A stretch of 64,000 nt of DNA from Betaproteobacteria bacterium (GCA_031421635.1 JANOPA010000014.1:15424-79423), one strand, 5' to 3'; shown: positions 7,840 to 44,887, numbered from the stretch's first letter. The notes: generated by a model from the letters alone, not told the origin. Numbers and translations: made by a program.

Positions 7840-8226
7840 TTAGCCATGCGCAACGCTGATCCAGGGCACCTCGTGATATTTCACGGTGACAAATAAGTTT
7901 TGACGATGCAATACTTGATTGTGTTTCAGATTATGAAGTAAGGCTGGGGGTGTGATGTTGGCTTCCCGTGGAGGCAATGACTAAAGTAAACCAACCGCCC
8001 TCATGAATTTTTAGAACGTTGGAGGCCAGAAAAAAAGTTTCAATGGACAGAAAAATCACTGTGATCGAGCCACACCGCCAAAGTGGAAAATTCCAACGAT
8101 AGCGCATGACGTAGAAGGCCATTATCGTGGTCAAGACCATGGTGCCCGTCACCGCAATGCCATAAGCGGATCCCAACGCTGCCGAGGAACCAAACCCGAT
8201 CACGGCGACGACCACCGCGAAGTAGA
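7840..8226 (-). pseudogene. kup: Remnant of KUP-family potassium transporter
   Basis: Two minus-strand frames match internal Kup segments. Frame A (7931-8226) reads '[31 protein letters not shown]...[14 protein letters not shown]'. Frame B (7840-7980) reads '[33 protein letters not shown]'. The first ~340 codons, ~60-70 internal codons and the last ~100 codons are missing. Confidence 0.7.
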
Positions 8227-8539
8227 CGCCATCATGATGATTGATTTCGCGCTCGACGCGGAACGTCAGGACGGCTTGTCGGCACATGAGGCGATTCGCA
8301 AGGCCTGTCTGCTGCGATTGCGACCCATATTAATGACCACGATGGCGGCACTCTTGGGGGCATTGCCCCTAATGCTCGGTAGCGGTATGGGCAGTGAGCT
8401 TCGTCATCCACTGGGTCTCACCATGGTGGGCGGTTTATTGGTGAGCCAAGTGCTGACCTTGTTCACGACACCCGTTATCTACCTCTACTTTGATCGATTG
8501 GCGCGGCGTTTTCGCCCAACTAAGAAGCAGGTCGCCTGA
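8222..8539 (+). pseudogene. mdtB: 3'-terminal remnant (~105 codons) of an MdtB-like RND inner-membrane pump
   Basis: '[91 protein letters not shown]' is the conserved C-terminus of AcrB/MdtB-type pumps. About 930 upstream codons are absent. It abuts the kup remnant back-to-back near 8222-8226. Confidence 0.75.
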
Positions 8540-10134
8540 TGTTTTCTAAAATGAAGGAGCAACGCGATCGTATTGTCGAGCGCAGTGAGAGCATCTCCAA
8601 GATCTTTATCGAGCGACCAGTGGCCACCAGCTTGCTCACCGTTGCTATTGCCCTGTCGGGAGTGTTCATTTATCTACTGCTACCCGTGTCGCCTTTGCCG
8701 CAGGTTGAATTTCCAACGATTTCGGTCACAGCGAATCTGCCTGGGGCAAGTCCTGAAACGATGGCCGCCACGGTGGCGACTCCCTTGGAGCGCGCCCTAG
8801 GCGCCATTGCTGGCGTCAGCGAACTGACCTCTTCAAGTTCACTAGGAAGTACGCGGGTGACCCTGCAATTTGATCTCTCTAAGAATATCGATAGTGCGGC
8901 GCGAGAAGTTCAGGCCGCTATTAACGCGGCCAGAGTGACTTTGCCTAGCAGCTTGCCCAGCAACCCGACTTATCGCAAAGTAAACCCCACCGATTCGCCT
9001 GTGCTGATTTTGTCGCTCACCTCGCCAACAATGAGCCGTGGACAAATGTACGATGCCGCGTCGACTGTGCTGGCGCAACGTATTTCCCAGCTTGAGGGCG
9101 TAGGCCAGGTCACGGTGGGGGGAAGCGCCTTGCCCGCTGTCCGTGTGGCAGTCGATCTCCCGGCCCTCACGGCGCGGGGGATCAGTTTAGAAGGCGTGCG
9201 AACGGCCATTGCTTCAAGCAATGTCAATCGACCCAAGGGCATTATTGAAAACGATGAGCGGGCTTGGCAAATTACGGCCAATGATCAGGCTCGCAAGGCC
9301 TCTGACTACCTGCCGCTGATTGTCGCCTACAAAAATGGCAGTCCGGTGCGATTGAGCGATGTTGCGAAGGTGACGGACGGTGTTCAGGACTCTCGAAATA
9401 TGGGTCTAAGCGATGGTCAACCCTCGATTCTTTTATTGGTCTATCGTGAGAGTGGTGCCAATATTCTTGATACGGTCGAGGGCGTCAATTGGTGTACCTA
9501 CTGCGGTCACGGGGTCGTTTCAGGGAGGAGCCAAGGTATTCAGGCCTCGCTGAGTAGCCAGCCGGTGCTCATTCTGAGTGCTCTGGTAGCAATTTATCTC
9601 ATTTTAGGAATACTTTACGAAAGCCTCATCCATCCTTTAACAATTCTCTCGACCCTGCCTTCGGCCGGAGCCGGCGCAATCTTGGCCTTGATGCTGTTCA
9701 AGATGGACTTCAGCATTATTGCTTTCATTGGTGGCATATTATTAATCGGTATTGTCAAGAAAAACGCCATCGTGATGATTGATGTCGCGATTGACTCCGA
9801 ACGTCGCCAGAATTGCAGTGCCCATGAAGCGATTTTCCAGGCCTGTCTTTTGCGCCTTCGTCCCATTTTGATGACCACCTTGGCGGCCCTGTTTGGTGCC
9901 TTGCCGCTTGCACTGGTGACTGGCGACGGTGCTGAAATGCGCCAGCCGCTGGGCATTTCTATTATTGGTGGACTGCTCGTCAGCCAATTGTTGACGCTTT
10001 ACACCACGCCCGTGATTTACCTCGGTTTGGACGGTTTGCGAACTCGCTTCGTAAATCGCAGGGGAAACCGTGGCAAGCTTATTTCCCAGATCCTGCGCGA
10101 TGCCCCCAAAAGGACCCAATTATCAGAGGCCTGA
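8539..10134 (+). pseudogene. mdtC: MdtC-like RND pump with ~1.6-kb internal deletion
   Basis: Residues 1-~315 align by eye with the E. coli MdtC N-terminus ('LPGASPETMAATVATPLERALGAIAGVSELTSSSSLGSTRVTLQFD'). At ~9485 the sequence jumps to the MdtC C-terminus ('GVPTAVTGSFQGGAKVF' in another frame, then 'QASLSSQPVLILSALVAIYLILGILYESLIHPLTILSTLPSAG...'). The product is 531 aa against ~1025 aa expected. Confidence 0.8.
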
Positions 10135-11452
10135 ACCTTTGCCTGTTCATCAAACGGTTCCAGAGAAATTTAGGGAGGATTTCGCCTACATGCAGACCGC
10201 TCAACCTGCAGATTTAATCCCGCGTGGGGCATGGTGGACCATCTTTAAGGATCCCATGATTGATGGGCTGATGACACAGCTTAAAAATCAGAATCCGAGC
10301 ATTGAACTCGCGGCCGCTAAGTACCGTCAAGCCAACGCTGCGTTCAGCCAGGCGCGGGCCGCTCGTCTGCCCATCCCCACCGGTAATGTCGGTGCTACTC
10401 GTGGCAATTCCAGTGTCATCAGTAATCCAGTGAGCAATTTCAGTGTTGGAACGGCAGCGAGTTGGGAGATTGATCTCTGGGGAAAGATCAGCCGTACCCT
10501 TGAAGGTAGCGCTGCCACTGTTCAGGCCACGGCCGCTGACTTGGCGGCAACGGAGTTAAGCCTTCAGGCGCAACTGGTCAGTAATTATGTTTCGCTCCGT
10601 TTTACGGATGGGCAAGCGGCCCTACTTTCTGAGACCGTTGCAGCCTACGAGCGCTCTTTAAAGCTCACTCAAAATCGTTACTTAGGTGGTGTAGTGTCAA
10701 AAATTGACGTGGTTCAGGCTGAAACGCAGTGGCGTTCAACACGGGCGCAACTCATTGATCTTGGTATTCAACGTGCAACTTTGGAGCATTCGATTGCGAT
10801 ACTTTTAGGGCAAGCTCCTGCCACCTATTCCTTGGCGAAAAGCCAGGCAAGTTTGCCAGAAATTTACCTGCCTGCGCTCAGCGCTGGACTGCCAAGTCAA
10901 TGATTAGAGAGGCGTCCGGATATTGCTGCGGCCGAGCGGCGCGTGGCGGCCGCGAATGCGCAAATTGGCGTGAGCGAGAGTGCGTTTTTTCCCTCACTTA
11001 CTCTCAACGCATTGGCGGGATTACGTGCGCCTTCGCACGCTGACCTATTCAATTTGCCAACGCGGGTTTGGTCGTTGGGGCCTGCGCTCGCCGCGACACT
11101 TTTCGATGCGGGCGCGCGCAAGGCCGTCACGCAGCAGGCGCAGGCAAGCTACGATCAAAGTGTGGCGAGCTACCGTATCACCGTGCTCGCGGCCTTTCAG
11201 GAGGTTGAGGACAACCTCGCCAGCCTACATGTGCTCGAACGCGAATTGGAGGAGCCAAAGCTTGCCGTGCTCGCTGCTACGAAATCGACAGAGCTGGCGA
11301 ACAACCAGTATAAAGCCGGTATTACGAATGACCTCAGCGTGGCTGCCGCGCAAACTGCGGAGCTGGCTGCCAAACGCAGCTCACTGTCCCTGATCGGGCA
11401 GCGCTACGCGTCAACCATTGGACTAATTAAAGCCTTGGGTGGTGGCTTTTAG
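10070..11452 (+). pseudogene. NodT-family RND outer membrane factor, disrupted
   Basis: Two same-frame ORFs (10070-10903 and 10943-11452) are separated by an in-frame TGA at 10901-10903, inside the conserved 'LPSQ*LERRPDIAAAERRVAAANAQIGV' block. Only ~8-13 codons precede the lipobox-like Cys ('FPRSCAMPPKGPNYQRPE'), so the lipoprotein signal peptide is gone. Confidence 0.75.
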
Positions 11453-11866
11453 CAGGGGCGTCCTTGACGCGATGATTGCTAATGCAGCCGCAGTGAGTAA
11501 AGAACTCGAAAGCGCCGGAGATTGGCGCAAAAAAACAGCCAGATCCACGAGTGTCAAAACACGGTACTGTTCAATAAAGGCGACTAGCGATGCAATTTCG
11601 TTGCTGCCGAGCTTCTGAGTATCTTCAGCGAGAACCTGGAATCCAACCCAACCGACGTTTGACAGTGCCCGCCCGATAGCCCCTTCGGCAATTCCGAAAA
11701 CGGACAAAATGCTCAAGGGTCGGAGAAGCAACTGCAAGATGCTGATTCGGTCGGTTGCTGGCGCATTCTGATAGATACTTGCGACAATTTGCGGTAAATC
11801 GTTGGGAGGAAATTTGTGGGCTTCATGCCCAAAAACGAGCTGTGATGAATTTGATACCTCAGACAT
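11423..11866 (-). CDS. Hypothetical protein (147 aa)
   Basis: The ATG at 11866 is preceded by a good SD (GGAAGGTGAAAAAATG). No recognisable family. Same strand as, and directly downstream of, the czc/two-component/barrel genes. Confidence 0.45.
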   Translation of the reverse strand: MSEVSNSSQLVFGHEAHKFPPNDLPQIVASIYQNAPATDRISILQLLLRPLSILSVFGIAEGAIGRALSNVGWVGFQVLAEDTQKLGSNEIASLVAFIEQYRVLTLVDLAVFLRQSPALSSSLLTAAALAIIASRTPLLKATTQGFN

Positions 11867-12005
11867 TTTTTCACCTTCCGTTTGGAACTTCAAGTACGAT
11901 TTTCTTTGGCAGTGCACTCTAATGAATGACATCATCTGCACTTTTGATGACAATTGAAATATTTCGCAGTGCGACTTCAAACATGAGTTGCGGCTCAGTG
12001 TATGG

Positions 12006-12797
12006 TTAGAAGCGGATCCCCGTGGAAATTCTCAACGAGTTATCAGCGCTGAAATTGACATTGGGGTCCCAGGCCACGCGCATAAACCAGCCCGGCCAAT
12101 CGTAGGTCGCACTTAGTCCCCAGCGATGGATGGTAGTACCACCTACCAGTCCAGTCTTATACAAAAGATCCATGCTCAACCGATCTCGTTGGTTGAGTTG
12201 GCGTTTGTAGACAAGATGAAGATGGCGCTGATCCGGATTCTCTCGATTGTCGCGAATGTACTGGACGGCGAAGAGATCTTTCGCAGACAGGTGCTTGCCA
12301 AGGCTCAGCATGTAGGAGTCATTGGGATCAAAATTGAGGTTGAAATAGGGTCTGAGATTGGTCCGTCCAAAGCCCAAGGAAAAGAACCAAGGGTCACCAA
12401 CTTCTGCCTGAATGCTTCCACCCCAAAAGCCGCCGCTCGCCGTTTGAATGGAGGGCGTGATTCGAATATCTTTCCCAAAGCTGTTGTCCCAGCCCGCGCG
12501 CCACTGAGAAATCATTTGATCAGATTGTCCAAAGTATCCGAGCCAAATATTGCCAAGTTCTGAGCTGCGCCGAAGGTTTACGTCCCAGCCCGCCGACTGG
12601 CTAGAAAAACTGTAGTAGCCGGTCGTGAATTTATAACTAGCACTGGTATCGGTTGGGGTAGACGTTTCCTGGGCGACGCATAGTTTTGGGATGAGTGCAA
12701 TTGACGCCGCGCTTATCATAAGGGCTAGCAGGTTATGCCAGCTATTCCAATGACACCCACAAACGCAAAGCCGCGAAAAACGTGCAAACGTGTTCAT
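12006..12797 (-). CDS. Putative outer-membrane beta-barrel protein, unclassified
   Basis: N-terminal signal-like segment, alternating aromatic/polar strand-like pattern, and C-terminal 'ISTGIRF' ending in Phe as in many OMPs. The start overlaps the kinase stop (ATGA at 12794-12797). Confidence 0.55.
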   Translation of the reverse strand: MNTFARFSRLCVCGCHWNSWHNLLALMISAASIALIPKLCVAQETSTPTDTSASYKFTTGYYSFSSQSAGWDVNLRRSSELGNIWLGYFGQSDQMISQWRAGWDNSFGKDIRITPSIQTASGGFWGGSIQAEVGDPWFFSLGFGRTNLRPYFNLNFDPNDSYMLSLGKHLSAKDLFAVQYIRDNRENPDQRHLHLVYKRQLNQRDRLSMDLLYKTGLVGGTTIHRWGLSATYDWPGWFMRVAWDPNVNFSADNSLRISTGIRF

Positions 12798-14251
12798 GAC
12801 TTCTTTACCTCGGATTGCTGAGCCGGAAGAACAAGACGAGCCTGTAATCCCCTTGTCGCGGAGTTCAACAGTTGGATTGTTAACCCATTACGTTCGGCGA
12901 CCGCTTTGACGATTGCCAGCCCTAAGCCACTGCCGTTCCCCGGCGATCCGGGAGGACGATAAAAGCGGTCAAAGATTCTCTCCTGGTACCGCTCATCGAT
13001 GCCGGGCCCCTGATCGGCAATTTCAAAAAAACTGAAAGCTTGCGTTGAGGAAGGGCCGCAGCTGATATTCACCTGAGATCCGACCGGAGAATAGAGCAGT
13101 GCGTTTTCAAGAAGATTATTCATCGCCTCGCCGATCATTGCACGTTGACCATACACCTTACAGGCAAGCAGTTCGAAATTGCAGTCGATGCTGCGCCGTT
13201 CTGCACTTTGCGCCCATTGTGGCGCGAGTTCTTGAATCAGTTCGGTGAGCTGAAAAGTAGAGGCATCGTTGTTTAGTCCAAGGCTTGCTTGTACAGCCGA
13301 CAACGTGAGCAATTGCTGAGCCAGATGAATGGTGCGCTGAGTCGCCTGGCGAGCTTGATCAATACGAGCGTCGCGACTGTTGCTATCACCTTGCGCGGCA
13401 AGCTCCAGCATCATCGAAAGACCCGCAAGAGGGGTTCGGAGTTGATGTGCCGCGTCAGCAATGAAACGCGCTTGCTCTTCTTGGGCGGTATCGAGGCGCT
13501 CAAGTAAATCATTGAGCGAATGTACGAGCGGCCTGAGCTCTTCGACCAGGCGCGGTTCATCAAGCGGCGATAAATTATTAAAGGAGCGCTGCCCAAGCTG
13601 CGTGGTGAGTTGATGGATAGGGGCTAATCCACGACGTGTTCCCCACCAAACGGTGAGGGCCGTGGCGATTGCGAGGAGGCTCAGTGGAGCGAGCAGGCCG
13701 ATCACGAGTTCGACGTCGCGTTGGCGACGTTTTCTTGTGGTTTCGGTGACAAGCACGGTGGCCCTGACATCTCCTCGATCAATCGGCATCAGGAGTACAC
13801 GGACACGGTTGCCGTTAAGGGTTAGATCATGTAATGAGCGTTCGCGAGGCCGTAAGCCAGGCCTCGGAGTCTCCGCGCGAGCTAGCTCGAGTAATTTGGT
13901 GAGATGCTCGTCGCCGATTGCAAATTGATCGTCACTGTCAAAGACGGCGTAGGAAACCGTCTCGAACTCGTCCGAGCGCAAAATAATTTCGGCTTCCTTC
14001 GGAAGTTGTACGACGATTTTCGAGTTCTCCCGCTTGATATACGGTACCAAGGCAAGCGCGGTATCTGCGAGTGATTGATCAAAGGCCTCTCGCATAGGGC
14101 GGGTGATCATGGTGTAACTCGCCGTCGCGGCCAGTAGGACCGCGAGGGAAAGACCCGGCAGGAGGCTAAGCAACAGGCGATTGCGCAGGCTGTTGCTCTG
14201 CATACGACCACTTTGACGAAAGTGGCTTTCGGTCCTTTGCATGACGGTCAT
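12794..14251 (-). CDS. Two-component sensor histidine kinase (2CSK_N / TctE-QseC-like periplasmic domain)
   Basis: Two TM segments flank a ~140-aa periplasmic domain. H-box 'FIADAAHQLRTPLAG'. N/G boxes 'NNLLENALLYSP', 'IADQGPGID', 'GSGLGLAIVKAV'. Confidence 0.85.
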   Translation of the reverse strand: MTVMQRTESHFRQSGRMQSNSLRNRLLLSLLPGLSLAVLLAATASYTMITRPMREAFDQSLADTALALVPYIKRENSKIVVQLPKEAEIILRSDEFETVSYAVFDSDDQFAIGDEHLTKLLELARAETPRPGLRPRERSLHDLTLNGNRVRVLLMPIDRGDVRATVLVTETTRKRRQRDVELVIGLLAPLSLLAIATALTVWWGTRRGLAPIHQLTTQLGQRSFNNLSPLDEPRLVEELRPLVHSLNDLLERLDTAQEEQARFIADAAHQLRTPLAGLSMMLELAAQGDSNSRDARIDQARQATQRTIHLAQQLLTLSAVQASLGLNNDASTFQLTELIQELAPQWAQSAERRSIDCNFELLACKVYGQRAMIGEAMNNLLENALLYSPVGSQVNISCGPSSTQAFSFFEIADQGPGIDERYQERIFDRFYRPPGSPGNGSGLGLAIVKAVAERNGLTIQLLNSATRGLQARLVLPAQQSEVKKS

Positions 14252-14255
14252 GAGC

Positions 14256-14936
14256 TTAGCGCACGGTTGGAGTCGTCGCGCTCAGCAAATAGCCCAGCCC
14301 GCGCAGAGTTCTGACCGTCAGGCCAGCAGGTTCGAGCTTGGCTCTCAGGCGTGAAATGTAGGTGTCTAAAGCATTGCTTGAGAGCTCGTCATCCCAATTG
14401 GCCACCATGGAAATCAGTCTCTCCTTGGGGACAATTCGATCAACATGCTCAATCAGGGCGTTGAGCACGGCCCATTCACGGGCCGGGAGATCGAGCGGTT
14501 CGCTTCCGATCCAAGCGCGCTGCGCATTCATTTCGACACGCAGGCGTCCAAGCTCCCGCACGTTATTACTGATCGGACGATTGCGCCGTCCGAGCGCATC
14601 GATGCGTGCCAGAAGCTCAGCCGTTTCGAAAGGTTTACTTAGGTAGTCGTCGGCTCCCGTCTTCAGCCCTTTAACCCGGTCGGATAGAGCATCGCGCGCG
14701 GTGAGGATCATTGTGAGCAACGAGTCCTGGCGCTCTCTTAGTTTTCTGAGTATGGAAATACCGTCCCCATCGGGCAGGCCAAGGTCAAGCAGAAGCAAAT
14801 CAAAGGAGTGCAATTGCAGTGCGGTCTCAGCATGAGTGATGTCTTCGACACTGTCGGCGACATGCCCATTGCGGCGTAAAACTTCCTGTAGCGACTCGCG
14901 TAGCATGCTGTCGTCTTCCACAATGAGGATTCGCAT
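14256..14936 (-). CDS. OmpR-family response regulator
   Basis: 'MRILIVEDD', 'DLLLLDLGLPDGDG' and 'SKPF' mark the receiver domain. The C-terminus is a winged-helix ('LDTYISRLRAKLEPAGLTVRTLRGLGYLL'). I chose the start at the MRILIVEDD ATG; the track start at 14978 adds 14 aa. Confidence 0.9.
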   Translation of the reverse strand: MRILIVEDDSMLRESLQEVLRRNGHVADSVEDITHAETALQLHSFDLLLLDLGLPDGDGISILRKLRERQDSLLTMILTARDALSDRVKGLKTGADDYLSKPFETAELLARIDALGRRNRPISNNVRELGRLRVEMNAQRAWIGSEPLDLPAREWAVLNALIEHVDRIVPKERLISMVANWDDELSSNALDTYISRLRAKLEPAGLTVRTLRGLGYLLSATTPTVR

Positions 14937-14998
14937 CTTTTTACCTCGACAGGTCTTGATTGTGGCTCGCAGCGCCAATGGTCAAAGCAAGGCCTAAA

Positions 14999-17900
14999 TT
15001 ACGCGATGCTGGGCTTGATCCAGCGCTTCGCAACTAAAGGCAGCAGGAGTAGTGTAGCGATAGTGGCCGAAACGATGCCGCCCACGATCACAACCGCAAA
15101 AGGTCGTTGTGTTTCGGCTCCAATGCCATGAGAGAGGGCGGCGGGCAGTAAGCCGAGGCCGGCCATGAGTGCTGTCATGATGATCGGGCGTAGTCGCTCT
15201 GCAGCGGCTTCGAATGCTGCGCCAGCGTGATCAATCTCCACAATGCGCTCCACCAGGATTAGGCCGTTTTGAACCGCAATGCCTGCGACGGCGATAAAGC
15301 CGACAGCAGCGGATACCGATAGGTGTAGACCTGCTAAAGCCAGTCCGGCGAATCCACCGATCAAGGCAAATGGAAGTACAGCCACGACCAATAATGCTGG
15401 CCGAAGCGCTTTCAATGCTAGGACTAAAAGTGTGAGTACGGCGAGGCAAGCAAGGGGTACGATGGTCCCCAAGCGCTTCATCGCGCGCTGCTGGTTCTCA
15501 AATTGGCCGCCCCATTCCAAGCGATATCCTACGGGCAGCGCAACCTCTTTGGACACCTTCGCCTGTGCTTCGGCCACAAAGCTACCAAGATCTCGACCGC
15601 TCAAGTTTAGTTTGACGGTAACGTTGCGTTCGCCCGCTTCGCGAGTAATTCTAGAAGCACCATCACGTACTTGAACCGTCGCAAGGCTGGACAGAGGCAC
15701 TGATGCCAAGCTACTCGCGGCGCCGTTAGCCGGGATAGGGAGTGGAATAGGGAGTTGGGAAATATCGTCAATGCTGCTACGCGCACTCGCCGATAATCTT
15801 AAAGTGATATCAAACGAGCGTTGCCCGAGGAAGAATGAGCCCACCGGCACGCCACCCAGAGCGCTACCTACCAAACGATTTAAGTCTGCCGCAAGCAGTC
15901 CATAGCGTTCCAACTGATCACGTCGCCATTGAATGTCGATTTCAGGCTGACCGGCGACTGGCAAGGCCGCAACATCTACGGCGCCGCGAAGTTTGGCGAG
16001 AATCTGAGCGACGGTGCTCGCCTTGGCTTCCAGGACGGCGAGATCAGGGCCAAAAATTTTTACGACAACCTCACCCTTGGCGCCTGATAAAGCCTCTTCC
16101 ATATTGTCTTGAATGACTTGTGAAAAGTTTGCACTAATGCCAGGGATCACGTTGAGCTTTTTGGCCATATCAGCAACCAAGGCTTCCTTGTTGTCGAACG
16201 CCCAAGTCTCTCGAGGCGTGAGCTGCGCGAGAATCTCCAAATTGTTCGGTCCTTTCGGATCCGTGCCATCGTCCGGCCGGCCCACTTGACCAATCACGCG
16301 TGAAACTTCTTTATAGCTTTTCAAAATATTTCTGACTTCACGCTCAATGGCCTTGGAATGTTCAAGCGACGATGAGGGCGCCAGACTCACCGTCAGCCAG
16401 ATATTGCCTTCGTCGAGTTTTGGTAAGAACTCGGACCCCAGCAAAGGGGATAGGGCCAAGGTGCCAATCAGTATGGCAAGTGCTGCCGTAATCACAAGTC
16501 CGGTGAAGGACGTTAAGTGCTCAAGCAGGCTCTTGTAATGATTCGAGAGCCAGGTCATCCAACCTAAATGTGCTTCCTCGAGCGGGTGCTTGGCGAGCCA
16601 CTTGGAGAGTAAGGCGGGCACTAGGGTCAGCGTGAGCACTAAACCCGCTGCGAGCGCTAAGGAAAGCGTCAATGCGACCGGCGTGAATATTCGACCCTCC
16701 ACCCTTTGGAAGGAGAAGATGGGCGCGAAGGCCGCGATAATGATTAGTTTAGAAAAGAGAATCGGTTTCGCCATCTGGCCTAAGGTTAGCTCGAGCGCTT
16801 TAAGCCTGTCTTCAGCACTCAATGCACCCGCGCTGAGGCGCACCATGAGGGCTTCAATGAGAACTACGGCCGAGTCGATAATGACTCCAAAATCTACCGC
16901 TCCGAGAGACATCAGATTCGCGGGAACCTTCATGAGCTGCATGCACATAAAGGCCAGCAACAGCGCCACCGGAATCACACAGGCTACGATCAAGGCCGCA
17001 GACCAGCGGCGCAAAAATAAGAACAAAATGGACAACACTAAAGCCGCACCAATCAGTAAGTTTTCCACCACGGTAGCCACGGTGTGGCCGACCAGGTCCG
17101 TTCTGCGATAGATGGGGATTAGTTTTACGCCGGGCGCTTCACGCGCCAGACGCTCGTTAATTTGAACAATCTTGTCATCGACTGCTTTGACCACCACCGC
17201 AGCGTTACTGCCCTTGGTCATTTGTACGATGCCTTCGACGACGTCGTCGGCATTGCCTTCCTTATCCGTATGAGAAACAATCCCGGCTCGGGGCCGCTCC
17301 CCAAAGCTTACTTCGGCGACATCGCCCACGCGCACTGGTTTGCCGTCCTCGGCTGCGATCACCGCTGCAGCAAGATCGGGCGCCGAGCGATAGAGTGCGA
17401 GGCCACGAATTACGAAGCTCTGATCCCCGCGACGCATCAGACCGCCTCCGGCATTGTCGCCACCGGCAGTAATGGCCTTTTGAAGGTCGTCCATAGTTAG
17501 GCGGTAACGCGCCAATTTGTAAGGGTCCACCCGGACTTGGAGTTCGCGAACGGACCCTCCAAAGCTCACAATATCGGCAACTTGCGGTACGACGCGCAAA
17601 GCGGGCCGGATCAGCCAGTCTTGCAGCACCCGTATTTCATCCCTTGGCATGGCCGCCGGTGCCTGAATGACATACCTAAATACCTCACCCACGGCATTGG
17701 AAAGCGGGGCGAGTTGAGGTTGTATGCCGGCTGGAAGCGTGGCATTTTGAATGCGCTCAAGTACTTGCGCCCGAGCGAAGAAGTCATTGGTACCGTCTTC
17801 GAAGGTGGCCGTGACCACGGACAAACCAGTGATCGAGACCGAGCGAATACGCGTCGCTCGAGGCGTTCCGCCAAGCTCTCGCTCAAGCGGTTGGGAAATT

Positions 17901-18109
17901 GAGCGCTCAACTTCCTCGGGAGCCCGGCCGGGGACTTGGGTGATGACTTGAACTTGGGTGTCCTGGACGTCCGGAAAGGCTTCGATAGGAAGGTCAACGA
18001 CGATGAAAGCGCCAATGACGCTTAACACGATCACGGCGAGTAAAATCAGGACGGGTTGGCGAACCACCGTGCTCATGGGTCCGGAGGAATTCGAAGGAGA
18101 ACTGCTCAT
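14999..18109 (-). CDS. czcA: Heavy-metal efflux RND pump, CzcA family
   Basis: 1036 aa with 12-TM RND architecture. TM4 motif 'VDFGVIIDSAVVLIEA' shows the D-x5-D-x6-E pattern of divalent-cation HME-RND pumps. The start overlaps the czcB stop (ATGA). Confidence 0.9.
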   Translation of the reverse strand: MSSSPSNSSGPMSTVVRQPVLILLAVIVLSVIGAFIVVDLPIEAFPDVQDTQVQVITQVPGRAPEEVERSISQPLERELGGTPRATRIRSVSITGLSVVTATFEDGTNDFFARAQVLERIQNATLPAGIQPQLAPLSNAVGEVFRYVIQAPAAMPRDEIRVLQDWLIRPALRVVPQVADIVSFGGSVRELQVRVDPYKLARYRLTMDDLQKAITAGGDNAGGGLMRRGDQSFVIRGLALYRSAPDLAAAVIAAEDGKPVRVGDVAEVSFGERPRAGIVSHTDKEGNADDVVEGIVQMTKGSNAAVVVKAVDDKIVQINERLAREAPGVKLIPIYRRTDLVGHTVATVVENLLIGAALVLSILFLFLRRWSAALIVACVIPVALLLAFMCMQLMKVPANLMSLGAVDFGVIIDSAVVLIEALMVRLSAGALSAEDRLKALELTLGQMAKPILFSKLIIIAAFAPIFSFQRVEGRIFTPVALTLSLALAAGLVLTLTLVPALLSKWLAKHPLEEAHLGWMTWLSNHYKSLLEHLTSFTGLVITAALAILIGTLALSPLLGSEFLPKLDEGNIWLTVSLAPSSSLEHSKAIEREVRNILKSYKEVSRVIGQVGRPDDGTDPKGPNNLEILAQLTPRETWAFDNKEALVADMAKKLNVIPGISANFSQVIQDNMEEALSGAKGEVVVKIFGPDLAVLEAKASTVAQILAKLRGAVDVAALPVAGQPEIDIQWRRDQLERYGLLAADLNRLVGSALGGVPVGSFFLGQRSFDITLRLSASARSSIDDISQLPIPLPIPANGAASSLASVPLSSLATVQVRDGASRITREAGERNVTVKLNLSGRDLGSFVAEAQAKVSKEVALPVGYRLEWGGQFENQQRAMKRLGTIVPLACLAVLTLLVLALKALRPALLVVAVLPFALIGGFAGLALAGLHLSVSAAVGFIAVAGIAVQNGLILVERIVEIDHAGAAFEAAAERLRPIIMTALMAGLGLLPAALSHGIGAETQRPFAVVIVGGIVSATIATLLLLPLVAKRWIKPSIA

Positions 18110-19341
18110 CGGGAAGCAATCTCACTGTCAAGAAGGAGGGCGCCTTGGGTCACCACTTTAGCGCCAGCCGCGACCGACTTGCCTGGCAGGGGTTCAATCC
18201 AAGCCCTCTCAGGATGTTGCGCCAAAATCGCGACAGGAATGCGTTGGTATTGACCCGGTTCGCGTTCGATAAATACTGCCGACTCGGAGCCTCGCGCCGC
18301 AAGTGAGGTCACGGGTAGCTCAAGTGCCATCCTTTGTCGCGCATCGGTGCTGAAGGCCCTGACAAACATCTCCGGGCGAAGCTTGCCTAAATCGTTGTTG
18401 ACATTTGCCCGTACTTGAACCCGACGGGTGAGTGGGTCCACCGAAGGTCCAATTCGACTAATAACAGCTAAAAGGCTTGAACTGTTGCTTTTGTCGTCCG
18501 CTTGGGAAGCGCTGCTCTTGTCGTCTAGTGAAAGTTGAATGGGTTGCCCGACGGCGAACTGGGCAATCTGCCCCTCAGGGGCATCAACAATCATGTTCAG
18601 ATGCTTCAAATCGGAAATGACAAAGAGGTTCAAGGCCTCTTCAGCCCGCACTTGCTGACCCACCGTGACGGCACGTTCCGTCACACTGCCGGCAATTGGG
18701 CTGAGCAAGGTATAGGTACTGCTGTTGCGTCCCAGACTATTGAGCTGGCGCAGGCGGTTGCGTGTGCGATCAAGCTCGGTTTGAGCCTCCGCTGCCTCGG
18801 CCTGTGCGGCTTGCAGCTCCTTAAGCGCAACGGCCCCGACCGAATATAGCTCCTGCATTCTCTGCGCCGCCGAGGTTTTGAGCCCCAGCTCCACCTGGGC
18901 TTTACTGGCCTCGGCCTGCACTCCTGCTAGTTCGGGCGTATCGATGGTGGCAAGTATGTCACCCACGCCGACCCGGTCACCAGGCTCCTTGAATAGTTTT
19001 AGAACGCGTCCAGTGACGGGGGCCGATAGCCGTGCGGTTCTGTTCTCGTCGAGCACAATCTTCCCAGGCAAGGCACCGGACTGCGGCACGGCGGTTATCT
19101 TCAGTGCTTCGGTTTGAATTCGTCCGCTGCGACTCGCTTCGCTTAAACCCACAATGTCGCGAGCTTCATTATCTTCGCGCGGTGCAGATGCTGGTGTAGC
19201 CACGTAACTTGGAGCGGAAACAGTAGCCGCGATTGCCGAGGAGCTCTGCCCCGCCCTCAGTGCGAACCAAGTGGAGGCAACACCCACGGCGAACGCGCCG
19301 ACAGTGAGCGCAATTACGGTGTAGCGTTTAGCGATGATCAT
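18106..19341 (-). CDS. czcB: RND periplasmic adaptor (membrane fusion protein), CzcB/HlyD family
   Basis: N-terminal TM anchor, lipoyl/barrel-sandwich motifs ('PVTGRVLKLFKEPGDRVGVGDILATI') and a coiled-coil hairpin ('AEAAEAQTELDRTRNRLRQL'). Translationally coupled to czcA. Confidence 0.85.
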   Translation of the reverse strand: MIIAKRYTVIALTVGAFAVGVASTWFALRAGQSSSAIAATVSAPSYVATPASAPREDNEARDIVGLSEASRSGRIQTEALKITAVPQSGALPGKIVLDENRTARLSAPVTGRVLKLFKEPGDRVGVGDILATIDTPELAGVQAEASKAQVELGLKTSAAQRMQELYSVGAVALKELQAAQAEAAEAQTELDRTRNRLRQLNSLGRNSSTYTLLSPIAGSVTERAVTVGQQVRAEEALNLFVISDLKHLNMIVDAPEGQIAQFAVGQPIQLSLDDKSSASQADDKSNSSSLLAVISRIGPSVDPLTRRVQVRANVNNDLGKLRPEMFVRAFSTDARQRMALELPVTSLAARGSESAVFIEREPGQYQRIPVAILAQHPERAWIEPLPGKSVAAGAKVVTQGALLLDSEIASR

Positions 19342-19350
19342 TTGGAGTTT

Positions 19351-20718
19351 TCAAGGAGTGGGTTTTTCATGGCCAAGAAGGCTAGGATCTAAAATAAGTG
19401 CGAATGCGGTCGCGGTGCGAAGCCGGTCAGCTCTTGCGCTGATGACTTCGATTTGCACGCTTCGAAGCGTTCGTTCGGCGTCGAGTACCTCCAGTACTGA
19501 GGCCGCACCTCGCTGGAATGAAAATTCGACGGCTTTGGAGTTTCTCACCGCCACGGGTAACGCCTGATCCTGTAACCGGACTTCGCGCTCCGTGGCGAGC
19601 CTCAAACCGTAGCGCAGGCGCACTTGATCTGACTGGATTTGAGACTCAAGCCTACGCGTGTCAAGTTCGGCCGAAATTTGATCGCTGCTCGCCCTTCGAA
19701 TATCGGCGGAATAGTCGTTAAAGATGAGTAAGGGAAACGATACCGAAACTCCCAAAAAGGCCCCCCCAGTGAAAGGCTGTTTTTCAACTTGCAGGCCGAC
19801 GCTAACATCTCGTGTACGCTGGGATTGGGCAAGCTCGACACCCGCCTGAGCGGCAGCTTCGCGCCGCTTTGCTGCCAGGAGTTCAGGTGTGCGCGGGTCG
19901 ACTGTTACAGAGGGTTCATCGGCATTGACGACAAGTTCGGCTACCGGAGGAGCGGGCAGGGTATTGACATCAATATTCTGCAAATCTTGCCCGGAAAGCC
20001 TGTTCGCTCCGAAGAGAAGTTTTAGTGCCTGCTCGGCGTCGAGCAAATCGCCCTGGGCGAGAGTGATATCGTTGAGTGCTCTAATGGCATCGGTACTCAC
20101 ACGATCTGCAGCCACTTCGGACAGGTCTCCGGCGCTGAGCCGCTTGCGTGCGATCGCGGCGGCTCGTTCCAGTGTTGCAGAAATTTCCCTTGAGGCCTTA
20201 AGCTTGAGGCGGGCGCTGTCCAAGTCTACAATGGAAGAGGCAAGTCGAGTCATTATCTGTCGCTCCGCGCGAAGTAACTCGAGTTGCGTCGATTCAAAAA
20301 GTGCGGTGCTTTGTTTTTGGCGAAGTCTAAGCTTCCCACCGCGCTCAATGGTTTGATCGATTCTTGCACTGACGTCCGTCGCATAGCCGAGTGGGCTACG
20401 ATTGAATTTCCACGAGGAGTCAGACAAGGTCAAGGTCGGATTGGGTTTAAGACCGGCACGTTCAAGATCGGCCTGGGCTGCCTCGGTTGATTGGCGCGCA
20501 ATTTGGATTTCGGGATTGCTCTTTCTGATCAATGCCCGCATGTTTTCCCAGGTGACCGATGTTCGAGGCTCTTCTGCTCGTACGATTGCCGACGTGCTTA
20601 AAACGAAGAATAGGGAGGCTTGAAGTAAGCCTCCAAGAAGCGTCGAGTAATAACGAAGCAAAGCTTCGCGCAAAGGTTCATGTGTCATGACCTCGAATTT
20701 AATGCTTAGTGATTGCAC
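19351..20718 (-). CDS. czcC: TolC-family outer membrane efflux protein, CzcC-like
   Basis: Two OEP-type repeats with coiled-coil character and a signal peptide 'LLGGLLQASLFFVLSTSAIVRA'. The start is ambiguous: GTG at 20718 or ATG at 20688. Confidence 0.8.
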   Translation of the reverse strand: MQSLSIKFEVMTHEPLREALLRYYSTLLGGLLQASLFFVLSTSAIVRAEEPRTSVTWENMRALIRKSNPEIQIARQSTEAAQADLERAGLKPNPTLTLSDSSWKFNRSPLGYATDVSARIDQTIERGGKLRLRQKQSTALFESTQLELLRAERQIMTRLASSIVDLDSARLKLKASREISATLERAAAIARKRLSAGDLSEVAADRVSTDAIRALNDITLAQGDLLDAEQALKLLFGANRLSGQDLQNIDVNTLPAPPVAELVVNADEPSVTVDPRTPELLAAKRREAAAQAGVELAQSQRTRDVSVGLQVEKQPFTGGAFLGVSVSFPLLIFNDYSADIRRASSDQISAELDTRRLESQIQSDQVRLRYGLRLATEREVRLQDQALPVAVRNSKAVEFSFQRGAASVLEVLDAERTLRSVQIEVISARADRLRTATAFALILDPSLLGHEKPTP

Positions 20719-20722: not shown

Positions 20723-20751
20723 CTGTCACGAATCTGTCATGAAACTGTCGA
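20723..20751 (+). promoter_or_regulatory. Three tandem 11-bp-phased CTGTCA repeats (Pho-box-like / OmpR-family regulator site)
   Basis: The sequence reads CTGTCAC-GAAT-CTGTCAT-GAAA-CTGTCGA. This fits the E. coli Pho box pattern (7-bp CTGTCAT repeats with 4-bp spacers). A -10-like TACTAT lies at 20765-20770 on the plus strand. The repeats sit immediately upstream of czcC on the other strand. Confidence 0.45.
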
Positions 20752-20816
20752 CTTATGCCGGTGCTACTATGACCTCAGCGATGAGAAATGACGAGTGGAA
20801 ATGACGGGTCAAATAA

Positions 20817-20939
20817 AAGCGCGGCCTCGTAGTCAATTGGATCGTGGGCACCTCAATTGGGGCGATCAATGGTGCGATCTTCGCTGGTAATAAGCCCGAG
20901 CATCGAGTCAAACAGCTCAGCGAATTTTCCCTTGGATGA
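20817..20939 (+). pseudogene. Remnant (~40 codons) of a patatin-like phospholipase
   Basis: 'VVNWIVGTSIGAINGAIFAGNKPEHRVKQLSEF' contains the patatin G-x-S-x-G nucleophile elbow (GTSIG) and the following helix. The upstream oxyanion GGG segment and everything downstream are absent. Confidence 0.5.
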
Positions 20940-21095
20940 GTTTGGATTTGCACGTGCCGCACGTTCCTACGGTACAGTTATGCGGATAGGCAACGCCGTG
21001 ATCCAAGGCTGCCTGGAAAAGCGTTTGGCCCGCCTGTAAGGCGATGGTGCGAGCCTCCGGTTCAATGCGCAGGGATTGCGCAAGATCGCCAGCCA
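20917..21095 (-). pseudogene. Remnant of a plant-type 2Fe-2S ferredoxin domain
   Basis: The minus-strand frame reads 'SLRIEPEARTIALQAGQTLFQAALDHGVAYPHNCTVGTCGTCKSKLIQGKIR*'. This carries the C-x4-C-x2-C cluster motif and the preceding beta-grasp segment. It is truncated right after the motif, where it meets the patatin remnant. Confidence 0.5.
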
Positions 21096-21437
21096 CAACA
21101 TATGCTGAATCGACCAGCGTCCCAGCCCGCGTTTTTCAAGCGCATCGCTATTGAGTCTTTGAGCATGGATGGACGTTTCCCAGACCGCGCGCGGCGCGAA
21201 GTTATAGAGGGTGAGACCGCGAGCGTGGTATAGCTCGTGCGCAGCAGGGATGAGCGGCAACACCGAAAGCCAAGCACAGCTACGGCCAGCGCCTAGCATT
21301 TGCCAACCACTAAGAGAGTGGTGTGCCACCCCCCAAGCCATCGCAAAGTAGGTCATCGGACCCAGTACTGTCGATATCCAAACCGGAATATTGGCAAACG
21401 CCTGATTCTTGATGGTTCGCGTCGAGAGATCGCGCGC
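21096..21437 (-). pseudogene. Remnant of an AlkB-like membrane di-iron hydroxylase/desaturase
   Basis: 'LIPAAHELYHARG' is a His-box-1-like motif. It is followed directly by 'LYNFAPRAVWETSIHAQRLNSDALEKRGLGRWSIQHML'. Compare P. putida AlkB 'SIYKFSIREIPGAFIRAWGLEEQRLSRRGQSVWSFDNEIL'. The ~40 aa between these blocks, including His box 2, are deleted, and the C-terminal half is absent. Confidence 0.45.
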
Positions 21438-23469
21438 TCAATCGCAATCGCGATTTGACGTGCAGGCGTTTCCAACTGCTGAATCTGCTCTGGGATGAGC
21501 AGCCAGCGCGGCTGGGCGGGCTGGAGCGCGAGCACGCCCCGAATACGAATCGGGGCCTGCAAAGGAACGTAGTGCCAAGCATGAGCGGGCAAAGTAGATG
21601 TTGCAAGGCCCGCACGCTGGCCATGGCGATAGGCCCAGTCAACAATGCCGGTATCAATCGAGTCGGGCAAATTGTCACCAAAAACCAATTTGTCGGTGGC
21701 ATCAGGCAGCAACGCTATGGCTTGACCACCAAAAGTACGATCGACCGCCGCTTTGCCGAGGTCCACGATTTGGACGGCTTGAAGAGCCGCCGATAAGTCT
21801 CGAGTTAATTCGAATAGGCCTCGTGCACGTCGTTCCCGACTGGCGGAGATGCGAGCTGAAAAACGTAGACGTGCGGTGAGTTGACCAATCAGTAAACTCA
21901 CAAACAACATCACGGCAAAGGTCACAAGGTATTGCACGTCATTGACGGCAAAAGAAAACCGGGGGGCTACAAAGAAAAAGTCGAATGAGGCCACGCCGCA
22001 CACGGCTGCAAGCATCGTCGGCCCGCGTCCGAGTTTTAGTGCCACCATAACCACATAAAGCAGAAATAGCATCACGATGTTTGCGATGTCCAGCAGTGGA
22101 TGCAGTGGGAGTACCAGGAGCGTCGTCGCAACGCAACTCGCCGCTGCCAAGGCGTAGCGCTGCCAACCGAAGCGCCCCTCCGGTAAACGTGAAAGCGATG
22201 CCTCACCTTCTTGATGATTACGAGGCACCATCTGGGGAAGTTGACGCGTGCTCGCGGCAATGCCTACTTCAATAATATCGAGAGAGGGTGCTAATTCGGC
22301 CAATTGGCGAGTGATGGTTGGTTGAATCAAGCGCCGCAGCGCTTGCCAGCGCCGCGCACGAGGACGGCCCGTGACCAAGGTAGCGCAATTCAGCGCCTGA
22401 GCCTGTCGAAGGAGTTCGACCGCAATGTTGTCAGCCGACACTACGGCCGTGCTTGCGCCAAGTTCTTCGGCTAACTTAAGTACGCTTAAAGTGCGGTCGC
22501 GCACCGCCGAAGGTAAGCGCTGAAGTGCGGGGGTTTCTACATAAATTGCATGCCAATTGACGTTAAGTTGCGAAGCCAGGCGGGCACTACTGCGCACCGC
22601 ATGTTCGGCCCCATCGTGGGGGCCAACACAGACGAGGAAGGCACCCGAGGTGCTCCATGCTATCGCAGCACTGGCCGCGCCTTGTGACTGCTTATTGCGG
22701 TAACTGCGTACATCGCCTTCCACATGCTCGGCAGTACGGCGCAGCGCAATCTCGCGAAGCGCAATCAGATTGCCTTTTCGAAAAAATTCTGGGCAGCACG
22801 CTCGGCCATCAGGGGAAGGTAGATTTTCCCGGCCTTGAGGCGTGCCAATAACTGGTCTGGCGTAATGTCTACCAGGATGATTTCATCGGCGCGTTCCAAT
22901 ACCTTGTCCGGTATGGTTTCTTGCACGCGAATTCCGGTAATCGCCCCTACTGTGGCGTTAAGGCTTTCTAGATGCTGAACAATGAGAGCACTCCATACCT
23001 CGGTACCGGCGGCCAGTAGTTCTTGCACATCTTGCCATCGCTTTGGGTGGCGCGAACCTTTGGCATTACTGTGTGCAAGTTCGTCAACCAGCAAAACGTC
23101 CGGGTGGGCCGCCAAGGCTCCGTCCAGATCGAACTCCAAACGGCTACCAACCGAGGAGGGCAAGGCACGCAGCGGTAATTGCTTGAGACCCGACAGGAGT
23201 TCCGCGGTTTCGATACGACCATGTGTTTCGATTACGCCGACCAGGATCTCCCGGCCAGCCCGCGCAGCGCGTTGTGCGGCATCTAACATAGCGTAAGTCT
23301 TCCCGACTCCCGCCCCAGCACCGAAGTAAATTATTACCTTGCCCCTGCGAAGTATGCCGCTGGACAATTCGCCGATACTTAGCTCGCTAACCTTTGGCCG
23401 AACCGACTCATCGCTCAATTGGGCAAGCAACTGGTCGGGGTCGGGCCGGGAGTCCTGCCTGCTCGCCAA
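21353..23469 (-). pseudogene. kdpD: Sensor kinase KdpD, frameshifted and 3'-truncated (no kinase core)
   Basis: The N-terminal KdpD domain with P-loop 'GAGAGVGKTYAML' lies in 22765-23469. A frameshift occurs near the T6/A6 run at 22781-22786: 'NFFEKAI*' against the expected 'NFFRKGNLIALREIALRR', which is readable in the next frame. Usp, DUF4118 TM and GAF-like parts lie in 21353-22723. The ORF ends right after '...ARQIAIAIERA', so the HisKA and HATPase domains (~250 aa) are missing. No kdpE follows. Confidence 0.85.
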
Positions 23470-23495
23470 GAGTGAGAGCCTTTCAGAGGATATCG

Positions 23496-24158: not shown

Positions 24159-24180
24159 AGTCTTAAAAATAGTGCTTGGC

Positions 24181-26178: not shown

Positions 26179-26181
26179 GCT

Positions 26182-28180: not shown

Positions 28181-28258
28181 GAATAACTCCTTCGTCAAAT
28201 GAATGACCAAAGTTTGCTGGACACCGTGTAAAAACGGGGATGAGATTGAGCAACGGGT

Positions 28259-28754: not shown

Positions 28755-29375
28755 CTAGGAGAAATCAGGCGTCTCGCCTCGCAGCCATTTCCTGCCTTGC
28801 GCATACAAGGATTCAACCACCATCCCTCGCAAACCTGGCATGTCGCGCTTTACTTTGAAACCGAGCTCAGTTTGTAAATAGGCTAGGTGACGATAGCCTT
28901 CAGGAAAGCCTTTGAGGACTTCGTCATTCAGCTTCATGAGAACGCTTGGGTCGACGGAATCCATCCGATCTTTTTCATAGATGGGTTGACGTCGAACTAC
29001 GCGCCAGCAATCCTGTCCGTCGATAGAACGCTTTTCGAAAAAATCATAAAAGCGACCCGTACACACTACATCAACCAACTCGCCATGCGCCAGACCCCGC
29101 TGATTAATAGTCATTTTGGTCTGAGCAATTGCGCGTTGGTTTTGCACGTCAATGGTCGTGCCGCCCAGAAAATGCAAAATTGAGACGCCGTTCTCGAAAC
29201 CTTTGCGACTGATTTCAATGAAATCGCTCGCAGTACCCTGAAACCAAGTGGCGCACATCCAACCATCGCTGTGCCAAACCGTGCGAAAACGCTCCCAATC
29301 GCCGGCATCTCGCCACAGCGCCCAGTTGTTAATGGTCTCGGTGATATTCAGTTGGTCGATTTGTTTTGGAGTCAT
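28755..29375 (-). CDS. SnoaL-like / NTF2-fold family protein
   Basis: 'INNWALWRDAGDWERFRTVWHSDGWMCATWFQGTASDFIE' is typical of SnoaL_4/NTF2-like proteins. I chose the start at 'MTPKQ' (29375) to avoid overlapping the MCP. Same strand as, and 59 nt downstream of, the last MCP. Confidence 0.7.
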   Translation of the reverse strand: MTPKQIDQLNITETINNWALWRDAGDWERFRTVWHSDGWMCATWFQGTASDFIEISRKGFENGVSILHFLGGTTIDVQNQRAIAQTKMTINQRGLAHGELVDVVCTGRFYDFFEKRSIDGQDCWRVVRRQPIYEKDRMDSVDPSVLMKLNDEVLKGFPEGYRHLAYLQTELGFKVKRDMPGLRGMVVESLYAQGRKWLRGETPDFS

Positions 29376-41162: not shown

Positions 41163-41169
41163 CGCAGTT

Positions 41170-43960: not shown

Positions 43961-44502
43961 TTGCTTGCCCCTAGTTCGTTTGGACTTATCGCTTCCTCCT
44001 CGGAAGCTTTAAAAGTCTGAAGTTCGGTATCAGAAAAACGACCCTGTAAAAGCTTAAGAAGGTCGCGAAAAATAATCAATCCGCCGAGAACTGCGAAAGC
44101 CATTCCCGACCCGTAAAACCAAGCCATCGAAGCCTCCATGGCCGCACTAGTGCTGGTGAAATTGATTTTGGTTTGCTCAAAAGAGCCTTTAAAAATAAGG
44201 CCGCATACGAAGAGCATCATGATGTAGGAGATTCCCAGACAAAACTTCTTGCCCGTCGAGCCAAGCTTGCCTACCAACATATCGGTCCCTAAGTGGCCGC
44301 GATCTTTAAGTGCTGAAACCGCGCCAAGAAATGTGACCCAGACAAACAGCCATCGAGACAGCTCTTCGGATGTGCTGAGACCCGAGTTAAAGCCATAGCG
44401 CAACACGACATTTCCAAAGACTAAAACAACCATCACAGCCAAGGCGGCGGCAATGAAATAATCTAGCCATCTGCAGTACCGTGTAATAAAACTGTCAAGC
44501 AT
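43957..44502 (-). CDS. dctQ: TRAP transporter small permease (DctQ family)
   Basis: Four predicted TM segments; 'GNVVLRYGFNSGLSTSEELSRWLFVWVTFLGA' is typical of DctQ. I chose the start at 'MLDSF' with an AAGGA SD; the track start at 44592 adds 30 aa. Confidence 0.85.
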   Translation of the reverse strand: MLDSFITRYCRWLDYFIAAALAVMVVLVFGNVVLRYGFNSGLSTSEELSRWLFVWVTFLGAVSALKDRGHLGTDMLVGKLGSTGKKFCLGISYIMMLFVCGLIFKGSFEQTKINFTSTSAAMEASMAWFYGSGMAFAVLGGLIIFRDLLKLLQGRFSDTELQTFKASEEEAISPNELGASK

Positions 44503-44734
44503 TTCTGATTCCTTGCAATGCGCAATGAAGTGCAAACTAGTAGCGCTAACGAGGCCCTTAGGCAAATATCCGATTCCAAAATATCCGGCCATTGCTCATG
44601 GAACCCGGGCCTACATCAGTCGATGAAGCGAGAGATGCCCATTAATGTACCAAATGGTTACTTTTATTATATAGTGAAAACGACTTAACGAGGCAGCCGG
44701 AACGCAAAAATTTACGAGTAATCCAACCCGTGGC

Positions 44735-44887
44735 TCAGGCCAAGGGCGGTTCGTCCGCTGCGCTCTCGGTGAACAGCACACCGACCCGTTCCATCGGTGC
44801 AATTGGCACTTCCGAAAACCCAAGTGACTGCGCAATTGAGCGGTTTTGTTCGCCAAGCAGCGGCGCCGAGAGCCCCCCACCCAATAC
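44735..44887 (-). pseudogene. Possible 3' remnant (~45 codons) of a family III (CaiB/BaiF) CoA-transferase
   Basis: A minus-strand frame not in the track reads 'LSAPLLGEQNRSIAQSLGFSEVPIAPMERVGVLF'. This resembles the conserved C-terminal 'aP.LGEHt.evL.eLG.s.eeI..L...GVi' of CaiB-type enzymes. It is bounded by stops on both sides. Confidence 0.35.

Follow-up and report, generated by a model that had tools for sequence, protein, structure and literature searches.

The remains of about a dozen genes lie between positions 7840 and 44887 of a 64-kb stretch of DNA from a Betaproteobacteria bacterium (G000:C14:15424-79423; this whole stretch is called the window here), and they probably record the local erasure of dispensable accessory operons in a structurally variable chromosomal stretch of a free-living, Comamonadaceae-like stream bacterium. 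The units being erased would be an mdtABC-OMF efflux pump (OMF, outer-membrane factor), a third copy of the K+ uptake permease gene kup, the kdpFABCDE operon, a patatin gene, a desaturase and reductase pair, a methyltransferase gene and a CoA-transferase gene. I also consider it likely that ordinary deletional bias acting on local, redundant, niche-dependent genes is responsible, and not a genome-wide collapse. The phenomenon is already known, and this locus is a clean natural example of it.

A first-pass annotation of the same DNA had listed eleven remnants, and all of them were found where it placed them, together with a twelfth, the methyltransferase stub. Ten of the twelve (kup, mdtB, mdtC, OMF, patatin, Fer2, kdpD, kdpB, kdpA and the methyltransferase) match a profile or an intact orthologue; the CoA-transferase is identified with moderate confidence and the AlkB-like assignment is weak. 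The annotation was also right that the damage covers every stage, from a single stop codon (kdpA) to stubs of ~40 codons, with deletions of very different sizes making up most of it, and that some remnants are joined without any spacer.

The host genome is a 5.23-Mb draft with 53.8% G+C, 98.4% complete and 1.2% contaminated, and its TRAP permease and flanking DNA place it in the Burkholderiales, family Comamonadaceae. The closest DNA to the window is syntenic, with 83-86% identity, and comes from metagenome-assembled genomes (MAGs) of stream and glacier metagenomes, of which G004 (L007, the closest), G002 (L008) and G001, all of ~54% G+C, were used as relatives. G003 (L006, MAG bin87), listed in the same genus at 66% G+C, served as outgroup and control genome. 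Near-identical contigs occur in environmental metagenome assemblies, one series of which is labelled "BUSI22 ... METAG", and the MAGs of the relatives carry glacier or stream sample labels; these sample labels suggest a tie to glacier-fed-stream biofilms (PMC9021309). The organism looks free-living, with no sign of host association or of a sheltered niche.

Gene remnants and the intact genes between them

The first pocket begins with the methyltransferase stub (7628-7765, plus strand), which keeps the first ~42 of 207 codons of an S-adenosylmethionine-dependent methyltransferase. It is 52% identical to residues 1-42 of the product of a 207-aa gene located after the hydrolase gene in G004, in which Pfam finds Methyltransf_25/11/12 domains. 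The kup remnant (7855-8224, minus strand) is an internal fragment with both ends deleted. It matches positions 337-421 of 454 of PF02705 (K_trans; E = 2.5e-24, at 7931-8287 on the minus strand), with an extra match down to 7855 that corresponds to residues 509-548 of the genome's own Kup. G000 has two intact kup genes (on C68 and C74), with which the fragment shares only 40-44% identity, so it was a third, divergent copy; G001 and G004 likewise have two full-length kup genes, and no third copy was found in the relatives.

Directly against the kup fragment, with zero spacer at 8224/8225, lies the 3' stub of mdtB (8225-8539, plus strand). Its last ~104 codons cover ACR_tran positions 935-1020 of 1021 and are 82% identical to residues 951-1054 of the intact 1055-aa mdtB product of G003. 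The adjoining mdtC (8539-10134, plus strand) has lost ~1.6 kb internally, with the junction near 9485-9511, and its frame is still open over 531 codons. ACR_tran positions 1-299 and 851-1018 remain, and residues ~301-836 of the 1035-aa G003 orthologue are missing; in a blastn comparison with contig C6 of G003 the alignment skips 1586 bp, between 31502 and 33088, at window 9485/9488. The OMF gene of the same operon (10070-11452, plus strand) carries a single in-frame stop at 10901-10903, which separates two same-frame open reading frames (ORFs) with an OEP domain, and one tblastn alignment crosses the stop to cover residues 53-496 of the 497-aa G003 OMF. A 185-aa ORF (11423-11980, minus strand) between the OMF remnant and the genes that follow has no Pfam match and is called at 147 rather than 169 aa in L140 and L144. 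A paralogue at C20:31982-32512 is 36% identical over the full length, so the ORF is probably a genuine, undamaged gene of unknown function.

The two pockets are separated by an intact backbone (12006-20718, minus strand) that encodes a 263-aa outer-membrane-like protein, a sensor kinase, a response regulator, czcA, czcB and czcC. All of its proteins are full length and 82-96% identical to those of G004 contig C657, and the Pfam domains of the sensor kinase are complete. As the annotation had held, the neighbouring operons are intact: none of the czc, two-component, che, aroE/aroQ and TRAP genes is shortened, and identity to their G004 counterparts is 80-96%.

The second pocket starts with a patatin stub (20817-20927, plus strand) made of codons 29-65 of 370, which is 81% identical to an intact 370-aa patatin adjoining czcC in G004. 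A DNA alignment with G004 shows that a deletion of ~85 bp took the start codon and that a second breakpoint follows codon 65. The DNA between czcC and patatin (window 20723-20770; ~5900-6000 of L086), including CTGTCA direct repeats, is almost identical in G000 and G004, although patatin, the gene it would serve, is dead in G000. At ~20920-20927 the patatin stub meets a 2Fe-2S stub (20920-21081, minus strand) tail to tail and without spacer. This is the N-terminal domain of a ferredoxin-reductase-type protein; it matches positions 2-51 of 77 of PF00111 (Fer2; E = 8.9e-10) and resembles the N-termini of 350-400-aa proteins encoded elsewhere in G000.

The next remnant (21078-21353, minus strand) may derive from a desaturase or AlkB-like membrane protein gene. 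A phmmer search of 1.84 billion proteins gave 22 hits, in which the stub matches residues 75-120 of 230-376-aa proteins; FA_desaturase (PF00487) was found only in the weakest of these (P0022), and a Pfam search of the stub itself gave no hit. A 129-aa ORF lies over this stub (20967-21356, minus strand). Public data hold a one-residue variant of it (P0001) and 66% identical short homologues of 105 and 132 aa (P0002, P0003), so similar remnants, or a conserved short ORF, of this type appear on this evidence to occur elsewhere.

The remainder of the second pocket is a dead kdp operon on the minus strand. A frameshift near 22724-22764 interrupts kdpD (21353-23505), and its last ~256 residues, which include the HisKA/HATPase part, are gone; Pfam finds the KdpD domain on one ORF, DUF4118 and GAF on the next and no kinase domains, and the whole aligns to residues 225-881 of the G009 frame. 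No kdpE was found. In the G000 assembly kdpC (23496-24158) is intact (PF02669, positions 1-181 of 182). Two frameshifts and the loss of ~41 codons (residues 464-504 of the G009 protein) leave kdpB (24181-26178) in three pieces, and a single TAA at 27370-27372 divides kdpA (26182-27981) into adjacent ORFs that match positions 2-196 and 197-548 of PF03814. Directly upstream of kdpA is a small intact ORF of 32 aa (27981-28079), taken as kdpF from a weak Potass_KdpF hit for the same gene in the identical loci L145-L149.

The last remnant (44738-44887, minus strand) keeps the last ~45 codons of what is probably a family III CoA-transferase gene. It aligns to the extreme C-termini (the last ~35-45 residues, ~370-413) of five proteins of about 400 aa, for one of which PF02515 is shown (E = 5e-100). 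A Pfam search of the stub gave no direct hit, because the PF02515 model ends before the C-terminal tail. The stub sits in 300 bp that are missing from G004 and G002, and no intact CoA-transferase gene was found at the same site in G003, which has a different gene there.

Lesions in independent assemblies

A draft or metagenome assembly can contain homopolymer errors and chimeric joins that would look like deletions and frameshifts of this kind; G000 is a draft in 152 contigs, and some of the lesions are single-base changes (the kdpA TAA, the OMF stop, the frameshifts in kdpB and kdpD). The reality of the lesions was judged by exact look-up of the broken proteins in independent public assemblies, with six Logan runs shown for mdtC and five European Nucleotide Archive metagenome assemblies for kdpA; the contig counts obtained are lower bounds. 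The 531-aa mdtC deletion product is present on at least 13 contigs, and those shown, where long enough, keep the order of hydrolase, 494-bp gap, 101-aa mdtB stub, split OMF and backbone genes. The 203-aa N-terminal product of kdpA is present on at least 23 contigs, some of them from the BUSI22 series, and these contigs share kdpF, kdpA in pieces of 203 and 395 aa, kdpB in three pieces, kdpD in pieces of 234 and 456 aa, the 129-aa ORF and czcC. Since the same broken proteins recur with the same neighbours across independent assemblies, the lesions are real and belong to the natural population, not to one assembly. A large deletion is also present in every affected operon, and relatives show clean alternative states at the same sites. 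The idea of an assembly artefact, which the annotation had also dismissed, is thus essentially refuted.

Furthermore, the decay of the operon continues. In four sister loci (L145-L148) the called kdpC product is just 158 aa long; in the window and L149 the gene is undamaged. Alignment of L145:12760-13540 with window 23440-24230 (99% identical) shows an extra 1-bp kdpC deletion in L145. L145 also has a further TAC-to-TAG change near the 3' end of kdpC relative to the window and L149. Because the sister population has this frameshift and the window and L149 do not, decay of the dead kdp operon is polymorphic and still under way. The lesions common to many samples would be older than the spread of the present population.

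The same sites in relatives and the source of the lost genes

The remnants sit where the four closest relatives differ by operon-sized insertions and deletions. In G004, the end of the transglutaminase gene lies 30 bp from the 263-aa gene, as against 5.5 kb in the window (6540-12005), and the interval between czcC and the SnoaL gene is 3.35 kb, as against 8 kb of stubs and kdp in the window (20773-28761); those 3.35 kb hold the intact patatin gene, a short-chain dehydrogenase gene and two small ORFs. G003 has an intact, translationally coupled mdtA-B-C-OMF operon, followed by one gene and then by the same SnoaL gene, and the mdt remnants are thus ancestral here. In G001, nudC, aroQ-aroE and SnoaL are directly adjacent, and both the TRAP genes and the che cluster are missing at the locus, while in G002 (L138, C76, 646-1053) a 463-aa gene, the C-terminal half of cheR and SnoaL are joined. 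The rest of the che cluster (window ~29.4-38.4 kb) is gone from G002, which has its own deletion remnant at the same site.

The lost genes are redundant or patchily distributed accessory genes. With mdt counted there are 13 RND pumps, and outside the window G000 still has 11 RND genes of full length, one of them with a TAA. No second kdp was found in the genome, and K+ uptake is presumably retained through the two intact kup genes.

The order of events, the mechanism of deletion and relaxed selection as the cause are what I infer as follows. A first hit would free a whole operon from selection, and the remaining genes would then gather nonsense codons, frameshifts and deletions of one base to several kb. 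Ordinary slippage or illegitimate recombination would produce these lesions with no mobile element involved, and the end state would be stubs joined end to end. In sister lineages this DNA would already be gone altogether, or else other operons would have been lost from these sites. The open 531-codon frame of mdtC and the native codon usage suggest that inactivation was recent relative to the ~15% DNA divergence from G004.

Absence of mobile elements is one point on which the annotation stands without change. There are no tRNA genes within the 64-kb window, no meaningful direct or inverted repeats flanking the two pockets, no window sequence repeated elsewhere in G000 (the paralogy of mdtB and mdtC excepted) and no mobility domains among the Pfam matches of ORFs located at the junctions or between them. 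Elsewhere in G000 there are transposases of the IS66, IS21-like and Y2 types and the maturase of a group II intron. All are low-copy multi-copy ORFs with 1-3 near-identical matches apiece, and none lies within the window. Composition is equally unremarkable: G+C content at third codon positions (GC3) is 0.55-0.65 in the remnants and 0.59 +/- 0.05 in the genome, and both GC3 and codon log-odds fall inside the genome's 5-95% range. The features of a mobile island or of a rearrangement mediated by insertion sequences (IS), namely mobility genes, repeats and atypical composition, were all absent. Just upstream of the window, C14:1-15400 has low coding density with gaps of 0.4-1.7 kb, and its small ORFs have near-identical or similar copies on contigs C15, C26 and C73. 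The distance from this region to the first remnant is ~11 kb or more, and the region could be an island that is either mobile or in decay.

These results bear on another possible source of the remnants, that kdp, the third kup, the desaturase and reductase pair and the CoA-transferase gene were imported, proved useless or briefly useful, and are now decaying as failed or spent horizontal transfers. Several observations would fit such an origin. KdpA is patchy in the family (six of 31 relatives) and missing from all four genus mates, and the closest kdp copy found, from another genus, has 67-74% protein identity; the kup stub is as divergent from the resident kup genes as described above and has no counterpart in the relatives; the CoA-transferase stub lies inside sequence that G004 and G002 lack; and a large share of prokaryotic pseudogenes has been attributed to failed transfer (PMC522871). 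However, GC3 and codon scores are native in all of the larger remnants, while the other Comamonadaceae loci measured have ~59-69% G+C, the borders show no integrase, tRNA, repeats or IS, and for mdt and patatin the remnants have orthologues at the corresponding positions in relatives. I therefore regard an origin by failed transfer as unlikely, though it is the strongest of the competing explanations.

A different possibility is that the losses were favoured: inactivation of an efflux pump and of inducible high-affinity K+ uptake would have been selected and then swept through the population, driven, in cold and ultra-oligotrophic streams, by a saving of cost or by antagonistic pleiotropy. In favour of this, identical lesions are fixed in many samples, and all four low-GC relatives lack both the mdt operon and kdp, which suggests parallel losses; for mdt, the open 531-codon frame of mdtC would make the loss in G000 too recent to be shared. 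Nothing, however, separates such a sweep from neutral loss, unrelated neighbours (patatin, methyltransferase, CoA-transferase) decayed as well, and the later lesions are polymorphic, as drift predicts. Both adaptive loss and the drivers proposed for it seem highly improbable.

The genome as a whole and comparison with known systems

Local remnants of this density had led the annotation to see the signature of a recently host- or niche-restricted bacterium. Gene calls by a simple codon-scored ORF caller give G000 4872 genes with a mean length of 317 aa and 88.3% coding sequence, and the same caller gives 86-94% coding on G003 contigs. Its 5.23 Mb is as large as the completeness-corrected size of its relatives (genus mates of 4.0-4.9 Mb at 84-95% completeness, or ~4.5-5.5 Mb corrected). 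When ~300 orthologues were judged against 780 kb of G003, two were clearly broken (~1%), a PilB-type T2SSE ATPase with a stop (C115:59285-61021) and an RND pump with one TAA (C124:19904-23008), the latter being the only broken one among the 11 RND genes outside the window; the reverse control gave a similar rate. A looser screen yielded 62 fragment candidates among 2709 genes with homologues (2.3%), several of which Pfam confirmed.

Three other counts were set aside. The ~9% broken genes of a first orthologue test against G003 were almost all artefacts of longest-ORF calls in a 66% G+C reference, namely N-terminal extensions over antisense genes and shadow ORFs, and those calls were discarded. 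Detection of split genes from adjacent ORFs and the genome's own paralogues gave mostly false positives from fused ABC or oxidase subunits and was used as a source of candidates only. A census of PF00005 in the relatives was unusable for counting pseudogenes, since it covers only the best matches, all of them intact.

Other broken genes do exist, and some are among the candidates confirmed by Pfam. A sugar ABC operon at C20:39269-41103 has a binding protein with an internal deletion and a split permease, a PHB depolymerase gene is split at C23:41164-42471, and a CheR-fusion protein is in about four pieces at C37:12231-14552. The 12 kb at C85:68.6-81 kb consist of 45-208-aa ORFs, at least eight of them fragments of longer proteins, including an SDR in three pieces and a 205-aa truncated copy that is 90% identical to C125:36728; C85:68600-81000 is another graveyard, at least as dense as that of the window. 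No look-alike stretch turned up in the other genomes scanned. Within the flagged span, ~12 of ~45 gene loci are remnants, where 0.5-1 would be expected at a background of 1-2.3%, and the ~12 represent about seven independent operon-wise units. Long-ORF coverage in 8-kb windows does not single out the span (0.78-0.95), because the pieces of young pseudogenes are still long ORFs; it singles out 13 other regions, three of which were inspected and resemble islands made up of small genes of accessory or mobile type.

Could the window then be a representative sample of a genome in reductive evolution after recent restriction to a host or niche? The other pseudogenes (pilB, the sugar ABC operon, PHB depolymerase, the CheR fusion, the RND pump), at least one further graveyard and a clade G+C below that of the other family loci measured would be in keeping with this. 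Against it stand a normal coding density and mean gene length, a normal size, ~1% broken conserved orthologues, the same as in the control genome, the lack of an IS bloom and the assembly of the same population from many stream-biofilm metagenomes; Sodalis glossinidius, by contrast, has almost 50% pseudogenes (PMC7067036). Low coding density, widespread disruption, a small genome and a host, the marks of reductive evolution, are all absent here, and genome-wide reduction is largely refuted and very unlikely. What remains of the annotation's "ongoing reductive evolution" is a process that is local, deletional and, as the kdpC deletion demonstrates, continuing. Its comparison of coding density and genome size with relatives turns out normal on both counts, and its own caveat, that these loci might be an isolated anomaly in an otherwise normal genome, holds in that the rest of the genome is normally dense and fails in that a few other pockets exist (C85:68.6-81 kb, C20:39.3-41.1 kb).

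Several points weigh against local erasure by ordinary deletional bias as the explanation. For a free-living bacterium, a density of about 12 remnants in 37 kb is high, and quick purging of pseudogenes is expected (PMC2916853). The ~60 extra candidates of the crude screen and the dense C85 pocket mean that the load could be near 3-4% rather than 1%. No intact orthologues of kdp, kup, the Fer2/desaturase pair or the CoA-transferase were found in close relatives, which weakens the case for their ancestral presence. Finally, the ~54% G+C of the clade, set beside ~59-69% in the other Comamonadaceae loci measured, could hint at somewhat relaxed selection across the lineage. The window genome, G001, G002 and G004 all have 53-55% G+C, as against 59-69% in G003 and most other Comamonadaceae loci compared (L006, L092-L133), and the marked AT shift is a trait of this low-GC clade.

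It is conceivable, if rather improbable, that the low-GC stream clade is a free-living lineage with unusually slow purging of dead DNA. If so, multi-gene graveyards would persist, span geographically separate populations and keep gaining polymorphic lesions. Existing metagenomes of the clade would then allow the rates at which pseudogenes arise, decay and are deleted to be estimated in a natural system, and the slow purging might be a first indication that selection is relaxing in a cold, patchy habitat.

With local erasure as the preferred explanation, the locus is a mobile-element-free example of stepwise operon erasure that can be seen at all its stages, with sister lineages still preserving either the intact or the wholly deleted form. 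These lesions, and at least one newer one, can be traced in public stream metagenomes and could give rates of decay and deletion for a natural, free-living population. Annotators should label kdp, the mdt pump and the third kup as pseudogenes. A striking local cluster of dead genes does not indicate a genome in reductive evolution unless a genome-wide check agrees, and here that check was negative.

Among known systems, regions of genomic plasticity resemble this locus in that the same sites hold different cargo in each close relative between conserved flanks. Unlike them, it has no integrase, tRNA target or direct repeats, and its variation is mostly loss that leaves remnants. Pseudogenes attributed to failed transfer (Liu, Harrison, Kunin & Gerstein 2004, PMC522871) are likewise decaying, patchy copies of transporters in variable regions, but codon usage here is native and the mdt and patatin remnants are orthologous to same-site genes in relatives. 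The ordinary prokaryote pseudogene load given in that study is 1-5%, and G000 overall is within that range.

Locally, the window is much like the genomes of Sodalis glossinidius and Mycobacterium leprae (PMC7067036, PMC3091646, PMC6211624), with stubs, frameshifts, nonsense codons and dead operons beside intact ones. In those host-restricted bacteria, however, about half of the genes are inactivated, coding density is low and IS have often multiplied, whereas G000 has 88% coding sequence, ~1% broken orthologues, normal size, few IS and an origin in stream metagenomes. The closest parallel is the work on bacterial deletional bias and the extinction of pseudogenes (Kuo & Ochman, PMC2817411, PMC2916853; Danneels et al., PMC6054270). 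As in those studies, point lesions inactivate genes no longer under selection, deletions ranging widely in size then remove them without mobile elements being needed, and the stage of decay varies among lineages. The pseudogenes described there are scattered and short-lived, whereas here about a dozen are gathered in two pockets of ~4 and 8 kb that are common to populations from many samples.

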